In this document: piece after piece, positions 3,001-26,248 of the stretch | Layout of the letters: each line of letters begins with the position of its first letter | Position numbering within the stretch: the stretch's first letter is position 1 | Assembly (NCBI RefSeq): GCF_013122565.1 | Contig: NZ_CP053258.1 | Direction: 5' to 3' (one strand) | DNA: 64,000 nt | Source: Escherichia coli | Lineage (GTDB): Bacteria; Pseudomonadota; Gammaproteobacteria; Enterobacterales; Enterobacteriaceae | The notes under the pieces: generated by a model | The model's input: only the letters and a program-made list of their open reading frames with translations | What the model was told of the DNA's origin: nothing | The model's database searches: none | Made by a program: the position numbers and the translations under genes

Positions 3001-4233
3001 CTGCCCCGTAATTTTTCCGCCTGCGGCCAGCAAAGACGGCGCTTCCCATTGAACATTTTTCAGACCGTGAGTTGCTTTACTCACCACAAGCCCCAGGGAA
3101 ACCGTCTGCCCGCCCTTGCCTTCAATACGTTCAGGCAGAGCAATACGGATCACTTCAGATTTGCGGTACTCAAGAACGATGTTGTTATTACGCTCAACCA
3201 GGTCATAGCGGCTGCCTGCCAGCATTCGACGCTCGCGAATGCTGTCTGTATCGAGTTGTTTTTGCAGAGGTTCGCCAATCCGATAATTAACTTCCAGGCC
3301 AAAGCGAGTGTCATTCTCACCACTCTTGCCCTGCTTATGCCCGGCACTCAGGGTCAGAAGAGGCACTGGCGTATAGGTCACCTCGGCAGAAATAGCATGC
3401 GGGTCTTTCTGGCGTTTATCTTTACCAAACAGCCCGACTTCATCGCCATAATACTGTTCATACATCAGGCTTGCGCCAAGCTGCGGCCAGGCGGGTAAAT
3501 AGCCCTCAGCACGAATATCCCAGCCATTCGCCGGGCGTTCCTGATAATCCTCAACATCCGGCGATTTTTTCCAGCCAGAAGCCCGGATATAACCATTGGC
3601 GCTCAGTTTCAAATAATCACGCCAGTATTCCGCACCAACACCAATGCGGGTATGACTACGGGATAAATCATGGTCGATAAAGGTGTTCACCCCCGCCATC
3701 CAGTCATTTCCTGAAAAATGACGCCAGCCAAAACCAATATTTGACTGAGTGCGATCATCTGTACGATGTATTGCCCCCTGAGTGAACAACATATTTGTCG
3801 GCGTATCATAAATAGGATAAAGCATTTCCAGAGAAGAATCCTTCAGCGAGAAATCTTTATCGACATTGAGTTTGACGCGCGCAGTACCGTATTTCCCGAG
3901 CCACTCCTGTATTTCCTGGTTAGCTTTAGCGGTGGCCATTCCGGTAATAAAGTTACGTGTCGCATCGCTATCTGGCTGACTGCTTAAAAAATTCCCAGCA
4001 TTTGCGGCAAACGACGCGACATTTTTCTCCACATTATTATCAGCAGCTACTGTGGTATTTTCCATGCTCAACCGTGGCTGAACCGCATGCTGCGCGCGTG
4101 CCGCCATTACTGGGGTAAAGGTGACCGCGAGTGGAAAAAGAACCTGAACAGAGATATTTGCCCACGCCACACAGCGGGCCAGAACTGAATAACGAAATCG
4201 TGGTTGTTTATGACCTGTTTTATAACGCGACAT
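1..4233 (-). CDS. eaeH: Intimin/invasin-like inverse-autotransporter adhesin with tandem bacterial Ig-like (Big) domains (EaeH/FdeC-like); start ATG at 4233-4231, 3' end runs off the window (>=1411 codons in window)
   Basis: Hand translation of minus strand from ATG at 4233 (AGGAAA RBS ~10 nt upstream) gives MSRYKTGHKQPRFRYSVLARCVAWANISVQVLFPLAVTF... then a beta-barrel-like region (GFGWRHFSGNDWMAGVNTFIDHD...) and many ~100-aa repeats of the type ...TLTVVDSYGNPLQGQEVTLTLPQG.... The ORF track omits it because it has no stop in the window. Frame continuity to position 1 was not checked codon by codon. Confidence 0.8.
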   Translation of the reverse strand, partial: MSRYKTGHKQPRFRYSVLARCVAWANISVQVLFPLAVTFTPVMAARAQHAVQPRLSMENTTVAADNNVEKNVASFAANAGNFLSSQPDSDATRNFITGMATAKANQEIQEWLGKYGTARVKLNVDKDFSLKDSSLEMLYPIYDTPTNMLFTQGAIHRTDDRTQSNIGFGWRHFSGNDWMAGVNTFIDHDLSRSHTRIGVGAEYWRDYLKLSANGYIRASGWKKSPDVEDYQERPANGWDIRAEGYLPAWPQLGASLMYEQYYGDEVGLFGKDKRQKDPHAISAEVTYTPVPLLTLSAGHKQGKSGENDTRFGLEVNYRIGEPLQKQLDTDSIRERRMLAGSRYDLVERNNNIVLEYRKSEVIRIALPERIEGKGGQTVSLGLVVSKATHGLKNVQWEAPSLLAAGGKITGQGNQWQVTLPAYQAGKDNYYAISAVAYDNKGNASKRVQTEVVITGAGMSADRTALTLDGQSRIQMLANGNEQRPLVLSLRDAEGQPVTGMKDQIKTELAFKPAGNIVTRSLKSTKSQAKPTLGEFTETEAGVYQSVFTTGTQSGEATITVSVDGMSKTVTAELRATMMDVANSTLSANEPSGDVVADGQQAYTLTLTAVDSEGNPVTGEASRLRLVPQDINGVTVGAISEIKPGVYSATVSSTRAGNVVVRAFSEQYQLGTLQQTLKFVAGPLDAAHSSITLNPDKPVVGGTVTAIWTVKDAYDNPVTSLTPEAPSLAGAAAVGSTASGWTNNGDGTWTAQITLGSTAGELEVMPKLNGQDAAANAAKVTVVADALSSNQSKVSVAEDHVKAGESTTVMLVAKDAHGNAISGLALSASLTGTASEGATVSSWTEKGDGSYVATLTTGGKTGELRVMPLFNGQPAATEAAQLTVIAGEMSSANSTLVADNKAPTVKTTTELTFTVKDAYGNPVTGLKPDAPVFSGAASTGSERPSAGNWTEKGNGVYVATLTLGSAAGQLSVMPRVNGQNAVAQPLVLNVAGDASQADIRDMTVKVNNQLANGQSANQITLTVVDSYGNPLQGQEVTLTLPQGVTSKTGNTVTTNAAGKVDIELMSTVAGEHNISASVNGAQKTVTVKFNADASTGQANLQVDTAVQKVANGKDAFTLTATVEDKNGNPVPGSLVTFNLPRGVKPLTGDNVWVKANDEGKAELQVVSVTAGTYEITASAGNSQPSNTQTITFVADKATATVSGIEVIGNYALADGKAKQTYKVTVTDANNNLLKDSEVTLTASPASLNLEPNGTATTNEQGQAIFTATTTVAATYTLTAQVSQNNGQVSTKTAESKFVADDKNAVLTASSDVQSLVADGKSTAKLEVTLMSANNPVGGNMWVDIQTPEGVTEKDYQFLPSKNDHFVSGKITRTFSTSKPGVYTFTFNALTYGGYEMKPVTVTITAVAEDTAK

Positions 4234-5128
4234 TGAGATAATTTCCTGATGAACGAATTAACGAACATATGCAGACACAAATAATGGCGTCTGCTTGTCA
4301 GAAAAACCGGGAATTTCCCGGTTTCCTTTTCCGCAGAAAAGGAAATACCTTTATGTAAGAAAGTGCACCGCCACCTAATATATTCAGTGTCTGTAGCCAC
4401 TCATCAGGTGGTTGGGCGCGGGATTATATTTTTATTTATGGGTGAAAATTTAGCTTTTTGTGCAAGTCATTAAAGTATGATTGTCACACTATATTCTCCG
4501 TTTAAATACAGTGAATATATTTTTATTTAAAGTGAATAATGATGTTCTGCTTTTAGTGACCACGATTAGAATTACGCCTAAAGAGGTATATGTTCATAAT
4601 AAGCCAATATTTTTTAAGGGTATTTATTTTCTTTCATCGGGCTATAAAATCCCGAAATATCGGATTTGCACAGCACCGATCAACAGTGCTTAAGCAGGCG
4701 GGTGCTGTTTACGACCAGGATAGTTAAGATAATATCCGGGAAAAGTTGGACATCAGCCCTGTAGAACCTGAATAAGTTCGCCTGACTTTACATAATCATG
4801 AACCGCGTTTTCGGAGCCACAGGCGGTACCAAAGTAAAAGGCTGGTGATGGGTACCTTTAGCCGAATCAGGTAGAAGTCATGAAATTCCCCCCTTAATCC
4901 ACAGCGTGTTCCTGAACTAACCATTCCGGATAGACTATTGGATCAAATTCAGGCATCGAAAGGAACAGGCTGTTTCCCGTTAAGGGATTAATTATCTATT
5001 TTCCTTAATAGATAACTGATGTAATACCTCTATTCAAATTTGTGATACATGTCAAAAAATTGGTTGACCAAACTCGTTATTTATATAAGGACACTTACGA
5101 AGTGCATTTTTAAAGCGAGGAAGTACCA

Positions 5129-5657: not shown

Positions 5658-5888
5658 TTATGAAGCATCATTTTTACTGACTGGTGTTAACTTTGCTATC
5701 ATATAAACTCTGTTCTTAAAAAACGCGCCCAGAATTTTATATGATTTTCCTTGTTTTTCTGCCTGTAAAGAAATTTCTTTTTCAGTGCTGTCAATGGTTG
5801 AACCGACGGCAGTAATCGTTTTGGCGACGCTACTGAAAGATAATAAAGACAGTGTCATCACAACAATTAAAGAACAGATAGTATTCAT
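5658..5888 (-). CDS. Small secreted protein, DUF1471/YhcN-like (signal peptide + ~55-aa mature domain)
   Basis: ORF track 5658..5930; internal Met gives MNTICSLIVVMTLSLLSFSSVA (signal-peptide-like) then ...AEKQGKSYKILGAFFKNRVYMIAKL, matching the pattern of YahO/YjfY-type small periplasmic stress proteins. Start chosen at the internal Met; the printed sequence and ORF track appear to disagree by 1 nt here. Confidence 0.4.
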   Translation of the reverse strand: MNTICSLIVVMTLSLLSFSSVAKTITAVGSTIDSTEKEISLQAEKQGKSYKILGAFFKNRVYMIAKLTPVSKNDAS

Positions 5889-19700: not shown

Positions 19701-20315
19701 TTATCCTTCGATAAAAGCCATCCCTGTAAATGTCCGTCGCGGGTTGCCACGTTCAATCTGGTGATGGAACATTCGCCGCTGCGATTTCAGCACCGCGCTA
19801 TTCTCCTGTTGCTGTTGTTCCAGCTTCCAGGCAATCAGCAATCGCGCCAGCCGTTTGTTAGCATGCTGGCTGCGCTCTGACTGAACCTTCACGCTAATAC
19901 CGGATGCCAGATGCGTGGCACGTACCGCCGAGTCGGTTTTATTGACATGTTGACCGCCCGGCCCCGACGAACGCAGCGTCTCATACCGGATCGCATCGGA
20001 TTGCCCCTGCTCATCAGCGGTAAAACGCCCAATGCCCAGAAACCAGTTTTTACGCCCGTGATGTGGGCGATACGGGCTCGGGCAAATCCACTGAATAGTG
20101 CCACACCAGCTTTCGCTTAACGCCCATGCGTTGTCGCCATCCAGAGAAATCAGCGCCGAACGCAGCGTGTCAGAGTAGCGGCCTGTTTCTGTTTCCAGCA
20201 CCGTTACCGCGACGTCTTGTCGGGCAGTTTCTTTAATTAGCCTGTCCAGCGCCTTTTTCACTGCGAGACAACATTCTTCCGGCCCCTGCGCTGAGGAGAG
20301 TTGTAGCAAGATCAT
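19701..20315 (-). CDS. prfH: Peptide chain release factor homologue PrfH (apparently full length, ~204 aa)
   Basis: Starts [19 protein letters not shown]...; contains GGQ motif ([17 protein letters not shown]); ATG overlaps the stop of the upstream RtcB-like gene (ATGA). ORF-track start at 20399 is an upstream extension. Confidence 0.85.
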
Positions 20316-21463
20316 CCTTTTTTCCCTCCACTGTTTTTGAGCGTTAGCACCGGACGCAGTCGCGCGACAGGAATAATTAACCCAGCCTGCACCAGACATT
20401 GCACCACGCTTTCAGCCGATTTATAAGCTTGTGGCGCTTCTTCAAAGATGAGTTGTTTATCGCGACAAATTACCCGGCTGCCAAGTTCAGTACGCGAGAG
20501 TTGCGTCACCGTGTATTTCGCTGCCAGACGCCCTTTACAATCGGTGCGCCCCCATTTACGCCCAGCCCCATGCGCCAGCGAATGCAATGTTTCCTCACTC
20601 CTGACGGGCTGAACCAGCCAGGAGTAATCACCGCGTGAACCGGGAATAACCACCAGACCACAGTCATCAGGCGTGGCACCTTTACGATGTAAGACCCCTT
20701 GTTGATCACCGATTCGACACGCGCTAACAAAGTTATGCGCCACATCCAGAACCGGACTTCCGGTGGCCTTAACCTGTTGCATTATGCGCAAAGCGATCAG
20801 CTGGCGATTAATACGCGCAAACGCCAGCGCATCGTCATGTTCCGCAATATAACGTAGCGCGTCGTCACTGCCTTCAGGCAAACCATGATGCGAAAACGAG
20901 GCAATATGCCGCTGTAAAATAGACTGCCCTAAACCACGCGAGCCGCTATGAACCAACAGTTGCAGATGCTGCGCATCCAGACCTGCCAGTGCAAACAGTT
21001 CAGCGTTGATGATTTGATCAACTTGTTGCAGTTCAGCGAAATGATTGCCGCCACCGATAGAGCCAAGCGAGCTGCGCCACGGATGCTGTGCAAATGCTGA
21101 CGGCAGGTTTTCCTCCAGCCAGCTTTCTTCAGCAACGTCATCCAAAGCTGATAATCGCTTTTCAAACTTATCGGCGTTGTATTTGCGAGCGAGAATATCT
21201 GTTTGCCATAGCGCCATGCCGCAGCCGATATCATTGCCGACCAGTGCCGGGTAAAAACGACCAACTGAGAAGAACGCTGCGCCAATCGGGTAGCCGCGTC
21301 CGGGATGTAAATCTGGCATCCCCACTACGCGCTGCATGTTGGGTAAATTTGCCGTGGTGTGTAATTGTTGGATCGCTAAACTCTCGATCCACAGGTCATC
21401 AGATGCGATGGTAAATACCGCATCGGATAAGGGACGAATATATTTGCCCATGTACCATTCCAT
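20312..21463 (-). CDS. RtcB-family RNA ligase paralogue (RtcB2-like), partner of PrfH
   Basis: 383 aa with RtcB hallmarks ([36 protein letters not shown]...HRKGA); translationally coupled to prfH. Confidence 0.85.
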
Positions 21464-21768
21464 TTATACTCGTCATACTTCAAGTTGCATGTACTGCGAC
21501 TGCGTTCGTTCACCCCAGTCACTTACTTTAGTAAGCTCCTGGCGATTCACTCGCTTGTCACCTTCCTGCAACTCGAATTATTTAGAGTATATAAATATTA
21601 AAAATCAGGAAATGGCAGACGAATCCAGGGCAAGAAAAAAGAATTAATCCTGGAAAGGTCTGCAAAGAGTCATTGATAAAGGATTTGTCATGATTTACCT
21701 CCTTGCAGTTTGTGGAATCAGAAAACGCGCACATACTAGGCGGGCGTTATTTTCATTGCAAGCTGGAT

Positions 21769-22221
21769 TTAATGTTGCGGTTTATATCGCATATAAAAAT
21801 TAGTAAACCACGCACCCCGGCATTCAACGCGCTGCTGCTTAACTGTCTGAAAACCATAACGTTCAAAAAAGGGTTTTGCGGTTATGCTGGCGTCCACCGT
21901 AAGTTCGGATTCAGACTTAATCCAAGGTTTTAACAAAGCACTGGCAACCCCACGGCGGGTGTATTCAGGGTCAACAAATAACATATCGATATAATGTTCA
22001 ATGCGGGAAATAAAACCAACCGGTTGTGCATTAATGACTGCAACCCGCACTTGTGATTTCGCGAGTTTCTCCTTCCAGCGAGATTCGTCAATCTGCGCCC
22101 AGACTGCAATTTGTTGTGGTGAATAATGCTCACTGGCTGTCATCGTAACCGCTCTAATGAAAATAGCGCATAGTTGCTGAAAATCGCCAGGCTGATAGTT
22201 TCTTATTTGTATGTTATTCAT
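21769..22221 (-). CDS. yafP: GNAT-family acetyltransferase YafP
   Basis: 150 aa, [25 protein letters not shown]...; start overlaps dinB stop by 4 nt. Confidence 0.9.
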
Positions 22222-23273
22222 AATCCCAGCACCAGTTGTCTTTCCATTTGAGGGTCAAGCAACGTCACATGCAGCCCCACCAGTCGCACACCGCGCCCGC
22301 CGCGGCGTTCATCCCAGGTTTTACGCGCGGTGGCGATTAGATCAGCTTTATTCAGCCGCGGCCAGACGTGCTCCTGGGTGGTTTGCTGAAAATCGTCGAA
22401 CTTTAATTTCACCCCCTGGCGAGCAATCAGTAAATCAGGTTTTACCTTTGCCAGACGGCGTTCAAGTTCCGGATACAGCCGCTCGATAATCGCTTCACAT
22501 TCAGACCAGTGATGAATATCTTCCGCCATCGTGCGTTCCACGCCGACGGATTTTCGCAACCGTTCGCTGTTAACATCGCGTTCGTCAATCCCCTGACTAC
22601 GCTCCCACAAAATGCGGCCAAATTTGCCAAAACGTTTAAGCAACGTCACCAGATCACACTTTTGTACATCACCGCAGGTCCGCAGCCCCATCGCTTCCAG
22701 TTTTGCCGCCGAGACTTTGCCGACGCCGGGGATTTTTGCCAGTGGTAAGGTTTGTAAAAATGCCGGAACTTCTGCCGGCGTAATCACAAACTGGCCGTTG
22801 GGTTTATTCATGTCGGAGGCGATTTTGGCGAGAAACTTTACTGGTGCCACGCCCGCAGACGCCGTCAGTTGCAGCTCGCTGAAAATCGTCTGGCGGATTT
22901 CCTGGGCGATGAGGGTCGCAGAACCGTGGCAATGGACGCTATCGGTGACATCGAGATAAGCCTCATCCAGTGACAACGGTTCAATACGCGAGGTGTAACG
23001 CGAGAAGATTTCACGGATATGATTTGAGGCTTCTTTGTAGGCGTCAAAGCGCCCCGGAAGCAAGGTGAGATGTGGGCATAATTTGAGCGCCATCCCAGTA
23101 GGCATAGCGCTACGTACGCCAAATTTACGCGCGGGATAATTGGCGGTGCTGATCACCCCCCGACGTTCGCGGCTGCCGCCAATAGCAATAGGGATATCGC
23201 GCAGGGCGGGATTGTCGCGCATCTCCACTGCGGCGAAAAAGCAGTCCATATCCACATGAATGATTTTACGCAT
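22218..23273 (-). CDS. dinB: DNA polymerase IV (Y-family translesion polymerase)
   Basis: 351 aa, [34 protein letters not shown].... Confidence 0.95.
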
Positions 23274-23289
23274 TGCTCACCTCTCAATA

Positions 23290-23305
23290 CTGGTAAAGTA
23301 TACAG
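23290..23305. promoter_or_regulatory. LexA (SOS) box in the dinB promoter
   Basis: CTGGTAAAGTATACAG (CTG-N10-CAG) about 17 bp upstream of the dinB start. Confidence 0.75.
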
Positions 23306-23343
23306 TGATTTCAGGGTTTGAGAAATGCGTAAAGATTCAGCAT

Positions 23344-23979
23344 TTAACGCGTTCGCTGCGAAAGCACCTGCTGCTTATCCAGCTTTTGCACCAGTGGCTG
23401 CACCACTTTATCCCCATGCTGACCAAAGTATTGATACAGCGTATCGGACGCACTTTTGGTCAGCACCATAATCTCAATACGCCGATTGCCCGCACTTTGC
23501 GGATTTTTCGCGTCCAGCAGCATCTGGTCCGCCATTGCGCTTACCTGCATCACTTTATCTTCCGGCATTCCTGCCTCTTCCAACACCCGACGAGCCGAAA
23601 GCGCGCGGTCACCCGAAAGGTTCCAGTTGTTGTAGATATTGTTTTTGTAAGCCATCGCATCGGTATGCCCGGTAATAATAATTTTGTTATCGAGCGAGTC
23701 GAACACTGGCGCGAGCTCCACCAGCAAAGTTTTAAAGAACGGCATAATCTGCGCGCTGCCGCGTTCGAACATATTGCGGTTCTGGTCGTCTTTAATCAGC
23801 ACGCGTAATCCCTGCGGGACAATCTCCATCTCCAGATTCGCTTCCATATGCGCATCACGGGCAATGGTGTTGATACTGGTTGCCAGCTCGCCAAGCTCGG
23901 TGGCGGATTTCTTCTTCAGCAGCGCCGTATTCTCGTTGACGTCGCGCGCTTTTTTCTCCGTCTCTTCCGGCACCGCCAC
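23344..23979 (-). pseudogene. lafU: lafU' remnant: MotB-like flagellar motor protein with OmpA-like C-terminal domain, 5'-truncated (Flag-2 deletion scar); upstream boundary approximate
   Basis: C-terminal OmpA/MotB peptidoglycan-binding domain (ITGHTDAMAYKNNIYNNWNLSGDRALSARRVLEEAGM...NRRIEIMVL); N-terminal part of the 296-aa ORF lacks a MotB-like TM segment. Confidence 0.65.
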
Positions 23980-24073
23980 GGTGGCAGGTTTTGGCGGATG
24001 AGACGGGCTGATTTTATTTAACGGCGACAACCCGCCACCATTGAAAATCGACTGCCCGTGCAGCGCGGCGATA

Positions 24074-25813
24074 ATGCTTTCACGCTCGGATTTACTGACG
24101 CTGTTGACAATCAACTTTATTGTCGTCACCAAAGGGGCCGAGCGTATTTCCGAGGTTTCCGCCCGCTTTACCCTGGACGCGATGCCCGGCAAACAGATGG
24201 CGATTGACGCCGACCTTAACGCCGGGTTGATCAACCAGGCGCAGGCGCAAACCCGGCGTAAAGATGTTGCCAGCGAGGCCGATTTCTACGGCGCGATGGA
24301 CGGGGCATCGAAGTTTGTGCGCGGGGACGCCATCGCCGGGATGATGATTCTGGCGATCAACCTGATCGGCGGCGTCTGTATCGGCATCTTCAAATACAAC
24401 CTGAGCGCCGACGCTGCCTTCCAGCAGTATGTGCTGATGACCATCGGCGACGGCCTGGTGGCGCAGATCCCTTCCCTGCTGCTCTCCACCGCGGCCGCGA
24501 TTATCGTCACCCGCGTCAGCGATAACGGCGATATCGCCCATGACGTGCGCCACCAGCTGCTGGCAAGCCCGTCGGTGCTCTACACCGCCACCGGGATCAT
24601 GTTCGTGCTGGCGGTGGTGCCGGGGATGCCGCATCTGCCGTTTTTGCTGTTCAGCGCCCTGCTTGGCTTTACCAGCTGGCGGATGAGCAAACGCCCGCAG
24701 GCGGCGGAGGCGGAAGAGAAAAGCCTCGAAACGCTGACCCGCACTATCACCGAAACCAGCGAGCAACAGGTCAGTTGGGAAACCATTCCACTGATCGAGC
24801 CCATCAGCTTAAGCCTTGGCTACAAGCTGGTGGCGCTGGTGGACAAAGCACAGGGTAACCCGCTCACCCAACGTATTCGCGGCGTGCGGCAGGTGATTTC
24901 TGACGGCAACGGCGTGCTGCTGCCGGAGATCCGCATTCGGGAAAACTTCCGCCTTAAGCCGAGCCAGTACGCCATTTTCATCAACGGCATTAAGGCTGAT
25001 GAAGCAGATATTCCGGCGGATAAACTGATGGCCCTGCCCTCCAGCGAAACCTACGGCGAGATTGACGGCGTGCTGGGGAACGACCCGGCGTACGGGATGC
25101 CGGTGACCTGGATCCAGCCCGCGCAGAAAGCGAAGGCGCTGAATATGGGGTATCAGGTAATCGACAGCGCCAGCGTGATTGCCACCCATGTGAACAAGAT
25201 TGTGCGCAGCTATATTCCTGATTTATTTAATTATGATGACATCACGCAGTTGCATAACCGTTTGTCGTCGATGGCACCGCGCCTGGCGGAGGATTTAAGC
25301 GCGGCGCTCAATTACAGCCAGTTGCTGAAAGTGTACCGGGCGCTGCTGACCGAAGGCGTTTCCCTGCGCGATATTGTCACCATCGCCACCGTGCTGGTCG
25401 CCAGTAGCACAGTGACCAAAGATCATATTCTGCTGGCGGCCGATGTGCGCCTGGCGCTGCGGCGCAGCATTACCCATTCGTTCGTTCGCAAGCAGGAGCT
25501 GGCGGTGTATACGCTGAATAATGAGCTGGAAAATCTGCTGACCAACGTGGTGAATCAGGCGCAACAGGGCGGCAAAGTGATGCTCGACAGCGTGCCGGTG
25601 GACCCGAATATGCTCAACCAGTTCCAGAGTACGATGCCGCAGGTAAAAGAGCAGATGAAAGCGGCGGGGAAAGACCCGGTGCTGCTGGTGCCGCCGCAGT
25701 TGCGCCCTTTGCTGGCGCGCTACGCAAGGTTGTTTGCGCCGGGGCTGCATGTGCTGTCGTATAACGAAGTGCCGGATGAGCTTGAGTTGAAGATTATGGG
25801 GGCGTTGAGTTGA
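24074..25813 (+). pseudogene. lfhA: lfhA' remnant: FlhA-like flagellar export protein lacking about 120 N-terminal residues (Flag-2 deletion scar)
   Basis: Homology to FlhA begins mid-protein (IVVTKGAERISEVSARFTLDAMPGKQMAIDADLNAGLI...); divergently oriented and overlapping the lafU' ORF. Confidence 0.7.
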
Positions 25814-25849: not shown

Positions 25850-26248
25850 ATGACGTCAGGGATTGATAAGATGATGAAAACGCGTTCATTAATATCTCAA
25901 GCATCGAACATTATCACAATTAAAGGTCAACCAGCCGCAGTGACATTTGAAGCCGATATCAACGCATTTCGCGGCAAGTTCCTCAATGTAAACGGTTATT
26001 GTGACTTTGTAGCCACAAGTATTGAGGCATTATATCGTGAAGGCGAAAGCGCGCTGGATGAGTGGATGGCGGATTGTGAAGAGGACGGTATTGCCCCTTT
26101 TCGTGAAGAAGAAGAGCAAAAACGCCTGACGCTTCGTGTTCCTCATCACATTGATTCGCGGCTGACCATCGTCGCCAGACAACATTCCATTTCAAAAAAC
26201 CAGCTCATTATTGATGTCTTAGAACGTGAGTTTTCAGCCCAGATGTAA
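25850..26248 (+). CDS. HicB-like antitoxin-type protein with C-terminal ribbon-helix-helix DNA-binding domain (orphan; no hicA seen)
   Basis: 132 aa; N-terminal HicB-like segment (AAVTFEADINAFRGKFLNVNGYCDFVATSIEALYREGESALDEWMADCEEDGIAPF), C-terminal RHH-like KRLTLRVPHHIDSRLTIVARQHSISKNQLIIDVLEREF. Confidence 0.45.
   Translation: MTSGIDKMMKTRSLISQASNIITIKGQPAAVTFEADINAFRGKFLNVNGYCDFVATSIEALYREGESALDEWMADCEEDGIAPFREEEEQKRLTLRVPHHIDSRLTIVARQHSISKNQLIIDVLEREFSAQM

Follow-up and report, generated by a model that had tools for sequence, protein, structure and literature searches.

In the RefSeq annotation of Escherichia coli K-12 MG1655 the operon reads dinB-yafN-yafO-yafP, whereas in the stretch of E. 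coli DNA analysed here (64,000 nucleotides of contig NZ_CP053258.1, hereafter the window) dinB runs directly into yafP. This raises the question whether the yafN-yafO toxin-antitoxin (TA) pair is truly missing here, how exactly the two operon forms differ, and whether the short form was kept or has arisen by loss. A sequence-only reading of the locus had named both genes, noted a 4-nt overlap of the dinB stop with the yafP start, reported yafN-yafO as absent and offered "ancestral state or precise loss" as the explanation, with an alignment to the K-12 dinB-yafP region as one check. Our main reading, which we hold at a probability of about 0.9, is that dinB-yafP in the window is an SOS-regulated two-gene allele of the CFT073/UTI89 type, lacking yafNO as one side of a 759-bp presence/absence polymorphism whose direction is not readable from the sequence.

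The dinB-yafP operon and its surroundings

The following features of the locus are referred to throughout.

21769..22221, minus strand: yafP, GNAT N-acetyltransferase (ORF, K-12 identity, Pfam)
22218..23273, minus strand: dinB, DNA polymerase IV (ORF, K-12 identity, Pfam)
22218..22221, minus strand: ATGA stop/start overlap, read from the sequence and the same as published for CFT073 and ECOR strains
22218..22224, minus strand: ATTATGA in single copy, the "empty site" of the 759-bp indel (alignment with K-12)
23290..23305, minus strand: LexA box core CTGTATACTTTACCAG (sequence match)
23297..23324, minus strand: sigma-70-like promoter, TTCTCA, 16-nt spacer, TATACT (consensus scan only)

Both genes are intact in the ORF listing of the window, dinB (22218-23273, minus strand) with 351 aa and yafP (21769-22221, minus strand) with 150 aa, and the other ORFs listed in the interval are short, out-of-frame or antisense overlaps of these two. 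Compared with K-12, DinB shows 99.4% protein identity and YafP 96.0% over its 150 aa, with nucleotide identities of 98.7% and 97.4%, respectively. DinB is full length and carries the Pfam domains IMS (PF00817, E=6e-51), IMS_HHH (PF11798), IMS_HHH_1 (PF21999) and IMS_C (PF11799), and with the IMS catalytic domain, the HhH thumb and the little finger (IMS_C) it would classify as a Y-family DNA polymerase IV. YafP matched the GNAT domain (Acetyltransf_10, _7 and _1; PF13673, E=3.9e-19), and its predicted function is that of a GNAT N-acetyltransferase orthologous to K-12 YafP. The raw minus-strand sequence across the junction is ...GGATTATGAATAAC..., and around the junction the minus strand reads ...CTGGGATTATGAATAAC...; the TGA stop of dinB lies at 22220-22218 and the ATG of yafP at 22221-22219, so that both share the ATGA at 22218-22221 (minus strand). 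The earlier identification of the two genes agrees with the ORFs, the K-12 identities and the Pfam domains, and the overlap it described is present in the raw sequence as this ATGA.

The gene order in the window is the K-12 order read in reverse, dinB-yafP being flanked on one side by pepD and the rtcB-prfH pair, which is intact, and on the other by what remains of the second flagellar cluster (lafU/lfhA). In the rtcB-prfH pair, at 19701-21463, a 383-aa ORF encodes the rtcB-family RNA ligase, and prfH carries an RF-1 domain; K-12 lacks 1,020 bp of rtcB-prfH (window 20225-21244), which leaves it with the ykfJ and prfH pseudogenes. The yafP-rtcB intergenic region at 21465-21600 contains an ERIC/IRU-type repeat, including the ERIC2 primer sequence at 21507-21528 (minus strand) with one mismatch, and the first approximately 40 bases of the studied interval match several places per genome as well as one plasmid. 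In E. coli strains, the aligned part of this spacer begins at query base 1, 104 or 136, indicating that the element is variably present. On the other side, at 23344-25813, a truncated lafU (OmpA/MotB-like) abuts a truncated lfhA (FlhA-like), the scar left by deletion of the Flag-2 cluster, which K-12 shares with 96.9% identity over 3.6 kb, and in E. marmotae (contig L007) intact motA/motB-like genes and a sigma-factor gene adjoin dinB. Between lfhA' and yafL, where K-12 has rayT, a 132-aa ORF (25850-26248) carries a HicB-family antitoxin domain (Pfam E=3.4e-10), with no obvious HicA partner next to it among ORFs of at least 30 aa, and a type VI secretion and Rhs cluster extends over 40000-64000.

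Compared with 5,426 complete E. coli genomes, the best identities were 98.5% over the 1.8 kb of the locus, 96.6-96.9% over 1-25000 and 91-94% over 40000-64000, the window alleles thus differing by at least 1.5% over the 1.8-kb region from every genome in this collection. As no close genome was found among the 5,426, the window appears to stem from a lineage unrepresented in the collection.

Promoter region and translation of yafP

Upstream of dinB, the LexA-box form CTGTATACTTTACCAG (CTG-N10-CAG) occurs at 23290-23305 (minus strand), with one exact match in the window and 0 expected in shuffles, and it overlaps a -10-like TATACT hexamer. We take this site to be the dinB SOS operator, as in the K-12 dinB promoter. 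The putative sigma-70 promoter upstream of dinB, agreeing at 9 of 12 positions, comes from a consensus scan, which by itself is no evidence of function. With a LexA box overlapping this promoter, dinB-yafP would fit the SOS (LexA) regulon.

ATGA overlaps in bacterial operons usually behave as sites of termination-reinitiation. As the ATG of yafP is embedded in the stop of dinB, YafP would most likely be made in this way: a single LexA-controlled promoter 5' of dinB would give rise to a bicistronic dinB-yafP mRNA, and ribosomes terminating dinB at the ATGA would restart on the spot for yafP, a restart that a weak GGTG read 8 nt upstream of the yafP ATG could assist. Such coupling would tie YafP output to DinB translation, with no YafP produced without DinB, and an elongating ribosome would not need to shift frame, since yafP starts at an ATG of its own. 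Gutierrez et al. (2011, PMC3105422) read the overlap as requiring frameshifting and saw no Shine-Dalgarno sequence; they further showed that mitomycin C and stationary phase induce a YafP-YFP fusion in the two-gene strain CFT073 and that the two-gene operon is transcribed from the dinB promoter with YafP made under SOS induction, and they found YafP to be harmful to cells lacking Pol IV. The coupling of YafP to DinB proposed here fits this last finding, as well as the published idea that Pol IV offsets a YafP-dependent cytotoxicity.

The 759-bp indel and its frequency in E. coli

When K-12 is aligned with the window, the flanks are identical and the window shows a single clean gap of 759 bp, located exactly at yafN and yafO. 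The K-12 YafN and YafO proteins had no tblastn match at E<=1e-3 in the entire 64-kb window, and at E<=50 the best matches in the same 64 kb reached only E=0.29 and 0.13. Likewise, no YafO-family toxin gene (PF13957) preceded by a Phd/YefM-type antitoxin gene is found in the window, neither protein being detectable there, and re-translation of the dinB-yafP interval gave no yafN- or yafO-like ORF. The absence of the pair between dinB and yafP, as claimed in the sequence-only reading, is thereby borne out by the very alignment it had proposed.

In K-12 the heptamer ATTATGA occurs twice, at the dinB stop (4948-4954 of the K-12 locus, L001) and at the yafP start (5707-5713), 759 bp apart, and in the window it occurs once; the indel thus consists of a self-contained 752-bp yafNO cassette plus one copy of the 7-bp direct repeat. 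Between these two copies, a short region resembling an operator, with TGTATA-type repeats in tandem, precedes yafN and then yafO in K-12. According to Christensen-Dalsgaard et al., yafNO has its own promoter, autoregulated by YafN, while SOS induction comes from the dinB promoter. No terminal inverted repeats or transposon-like ends were found at both ends of the K-12 yafNO segment, the pairs found being short and mostly imperfect, and apart from the 7-bp direct repeat, its only conspicuous elements are short tandem repeats resembling an operator, which precede yafN. Excision or insertion through ATTATGA leaves no scar, and the junction is silent on direction, since an insertion that duplicates 7 bp and a deletion between 7-bp repeats would produce identical sequence pairs. 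Nor does base composition distinguish the two directions: the G+C content is 41.8% for the indel segment and 54% for dinB, and yafP is also low with 43%.

In the set of 5,426 complete E. coli genomes, the K-12 yafNO segment was matched in 2,847 (52.5%), and the direct dinB-yafP junction in 2,569 (47.3%). The junction was counted with a 121-bp probe spanning it, of which at least 80% had to match at a single place, and several 98-100% identical single-piece matches were among those listed for the probe. The sum of both groups, 5,416 of 5,426, shows that the two classes are essentially mutually exclusive. These frequencies can be set beside those of Gutierrez et al. (2011, NAR 39:4192, PMC3105422), who reported that 40% of sequenced strains and 50% of ECOR strains carry dinB and yafP alone, described the genes of two-gene strains as "always fused" with a 4-nt overlap, ATGA, and used CFT073 as model strain. 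Fraikin et al. (2020, PMC7167474) likewise described dinB-yafP as an undisturbed bicistron in strains without yafNO, treating yafNO as an insertion. The two-gene junction is thus a real and ordinary polymorphism, already published and first described in 2011.

Two further readings bear on the absence itself. That yafNO was not lost but moved elsewhere in this genome, outside the window, is very unlikely in our view. Pairs with about 69% YafO identity do sit at several unrelated loci in Klebsiella and other genera, which means that this kind of cassette is mobile, and K-12-type yafNO copies occupy eight plasmid places in the E. coli genome set; a separate plasmid collection also contains 100%-identical yafNO on laboratory E. 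coli K-12 plasmids, which we take to be F-prime episomes. However, yafNO is found at a median of one and at most two places per carrier genome among the 5,426, and with this median and class counts summing to just under the total, a second copy elsewhere is improbable. The remaining suggestion, that the junction is an assembly collapse or that dinB and yafP are pseudogenes, has nothing in its favour and is refuted: both genes retain full-length frames that encode all domains and match the K-12 proteins at 96-99% identity, and the identical junction occurs in 2,569 independently finished genomes.

Among named systems, the two-gene operon of E. coli CFT073 and UTI89 has the same genes, ATGA overlap and junction sequence as the window, the same LexA-box promoter upstream of dinB and the same neighbours, pepD and the lafU remnant, and no difference of substance was seen. 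The K-12 four-gene operon (McKenzie et al. 2003; NC_000913.3 b0231-b0234) shares orthologous dinB and yafP, the promoter region, the LexA box and the flanking genes, but differs by the extra 759 bp comprising the yafNO promoter/operator, yafN, yafO and the second ATTATGA; its yafP starts 9 nt after the yafO stop, whereas yafP of the window overlaps dinB instead. A comparable polymorphism is relA-mazEF-mazG versus relA-mazG (Fraikin et al. 2020, PMC7167474), in which a type II TA pair also lies between two cistrons and relA-mazG is an undisturbed bicistron in strains without mazEF, as is dinB-yafP without yafNO, although the genes and the toxin family are different from those of yafNO.

Direction of the change and standing of the two-gene form

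The outgroups of E. coli carry both operon forms. A tight two-gene junction is found in E. marmotae and in Escherichia sp. MOD1-EC7003, both with the ATGA overlap, in Citrobacter amalonaticus (dinB TAA, 5 nt, yafP ATG) and in Kluyvera ascorbata (dinB TAA, 2 nt, yafP ATG), and an Escherichia-like contig (L038) has the junction GGGTTATAAATAATATGCAACTAAGA, which lines up position by position with GGGATTATGAATAACATACAAATAAGA, the two-gene junction of E. coli. In C. amalonaticus CP014015.2 (L008 3501-3512) the yafP start is called at 3501 on an ATA in the dinB stop region, with the first ATG 9 nt downstream, and the annotated 4-nt overlap of this species is probably a start-codon miscall. The four-gene form is present in E. 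whittamii, in the divergent "E. coli" lineage SCPM-O-B-8794 and, according to Gutierrez et al. (2011, PMC3105422), in E. fergusonii; our scan with a YafP peptide pattern, covering one genome per species, returned five loci, with E. fergusonii and E. albertii not among them. Pseudocitrobacter (L030-L032) also carries dinB-yafN-yafO-yafP, with the same left junction as K-12, the cassette beginning directly after the dinB stop (TGA followed by TGTATAC), and with nucleotide identities to K-12 of 80.3% for dinB, 78.6% for yafN and 76.9% for yafO. Strain FGI 57 has an identical YafP, and the Pseudocitrobacter operon (L030 2097-4358) adjoins nqr genes. In a contig of another genus (L037), dinB is followed by yafN-yafO and then pepD, without yafP.

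Two candidates were set aside during this comparison. The view that the operon of the family's deep ancestor had two genes was withdrawn when the four-gene operon of Pseudocitrobacter was found. A 79% YafO "homologue" in the Logan contig from SRR27475577 (L036) shows a pervasive G-to-A change of E. coli dinB-yafNO-yafP with no translation corresponding to the query, and probably represents chemically converted or damaged reads rather than a real homologue.

Within E. coli, the evidence points to repeated switching between the two states. Neighbour-joining trees of dinB, yafP and the junction (±300 bp), built from 16 E. coli alleles and outgroups as simple distance trees of a recombining locus, interleave two- and four-gene states. 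Strain 23753 (two-gene) equals UPEC-455U (four-gene) over dinB 694-1056 and yafP 1-216, yafP is identical in GPEC1210 (two-gene) and A33 (four-gene), and single YafP or DinB protein accessions are shared between two- and four-gene strains. No SNP near the junction, as a sign of a single origin, is fixed between the two- and four-gene alleles of our sample; the only SNP restricted to yafN-bearing alleles, dinB T990, is not fixed among them. Differences between four-gene strains are distributed unevenly, with 51 in dinB, 2 in the cassette and 8 in yafP for TCM3e1 versus A33, and 11, 15 and 2, respectively, for UPEC-455U versus A33, a pattern by which the yafNO cassette re-assorts against its flanks, as judged from these allele sequences. 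In the window, dinB is sister to K-12 dinB (98.7% identity), yafP is nearest to a two-gene strain, and the alleles at dinB-yafP sit inside ordinary E. coli diversity.

Besides these two states we observed a third, dinB-yafN-yafP, in which yafO was removed by a 379-bp deletion at TTAT microhomology (L002 3625-4000, E1V33; L025 1363-1738, GF43). The same deletion is present in two very different backgrounds; what remains is an antitoxin gene without its partner and a yafO stub of 10 codons, the stop of which overlaps the ATG of yafP. In E. coli SCPM-O-B-8794 (L003 3593-3991), yafO has a premature stop at codon 119 with yafN intact, i.e., a toxin decaying within a four-gene operon.

Divergence at silent sites provides a different view on the age of the cassette. 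We compared a small sample of eight to nine four-gene alleles at four-fold degenerate sites using Fisher tests, the pairwise tests not being independent of each other. For E. whittamii versus E. coli strains, four-fold divergence was 0.03-0.06 in yafNO and 0.19-0.25 in dinB+yafP (Fisher p down to 2e-6), and for K-12 versus strain A33 it was 0.044 and 0.197 (p 5e-4), so that within Escherichia the flanks have diverged 4-5 times as much at silent sites as yafNO. Versus Pseudocitrobacter, in turn, yafN and yafO reach 0.61-0.63 and dinB 0.49, a comparison showing that the cassette is not intrinsically slow to evolve. The low divergence of yafNO within Escherichia is not expected under vertical inheritance since the ancestor of the genus.

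These data bear on two opposed accounts of direction. In the published model the four-gene operon is ancestral and yafNO was lost by precise deletion in this lineage, through recombination or slippage between the ATTATGA (ATGA) repeats, which we consider a strong contender that nevertheless falls short of even odds. It draws on the at least three independent losses that Gutierrez et al. (2011, PMC3105422) inferred from the ECOR tree and the four-gene E. fergusonii, and on the Pseudocitrobacter operon with its K-12-like left junction. In addition, two-gene alleles in our sample fall among four-gene ones of almost the same flanking sequence, e.g., 23753 and UPEC-455U, and deletions do occur at the locus, as in E. 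coli GF43 and Escherichia sp. E1V33. Against it stand the tight two-gene junctions of E. marmotae, C. amalonaticus and Kluyvera and the reduced silent-site divergence of yafNO within Escherichia; moreover, the joint loss of toxin and antitoxin is expected to be counter-selected owing to TA addiction. The opposite account, that the four-gene-ancestral history with at least three deletions is backwards for most E. coli lineages and that yafNO is a selfish TA cassette recently spread by homologous recombination into an empty dinB/yafP site, we put forward tentatively, as a possibility that is rather less than probable. A cassette that coalesces 4-5 times more recently than its flanks, is common to E. 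coli and E. whittamii and re-assorts against its surroundings looks like the result of a recent selfish spread. If this account were true, the window allele would represent the not-yet-invaded state, and the approximately 50:50 polymorphism would capture one moment of an invasion still under way, counterbalanced by rare scarless excision. What is mildly new here is the young coalescence of yafNO within Escherichia set against the conserved position of the cassette in Pseudocitrobacter, which questions the published deletion account without overturning it.

Taken together, the locus is a long-lived presence/absence polymorphism shuffled by recombination, with scarless excision via the 7-bp repeat as a plausible additional route. 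The two operon forms are about equally frequent in E. coli (about 50:50), and we propose that recombination, such excision, or both carry them from one background to another. For the window lineage itself, chances are a little better than even that it has kept the primitive uninterrupted junction or re-acquired it by recombination, and a secondary precise loss of yafNO has a slightly less than even chance. With a scarless repeat, mixed outgroups and repeated switching, the evidence leaves the matter where the earlier wording, "ancestral state or precise loss", had placed it.

Considering that structure, frequency and both evolutionary readings of the two-gene operon are already in the literature, its occurrence in the window carries little weight as a discovery. 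Nevertheless, it illustrates that K-12 is not representative of E. coli at the dinB operon and that the absence of yafNO should not be counted as an anomaly. In two-gene strains, YafP synthesis would be tied directly to the translation of DinB. Beyond this, the yafNO locus may be of small population-genetic interest and could serve as a tractable case for the spread and loss of a chromosomal TA cassette.
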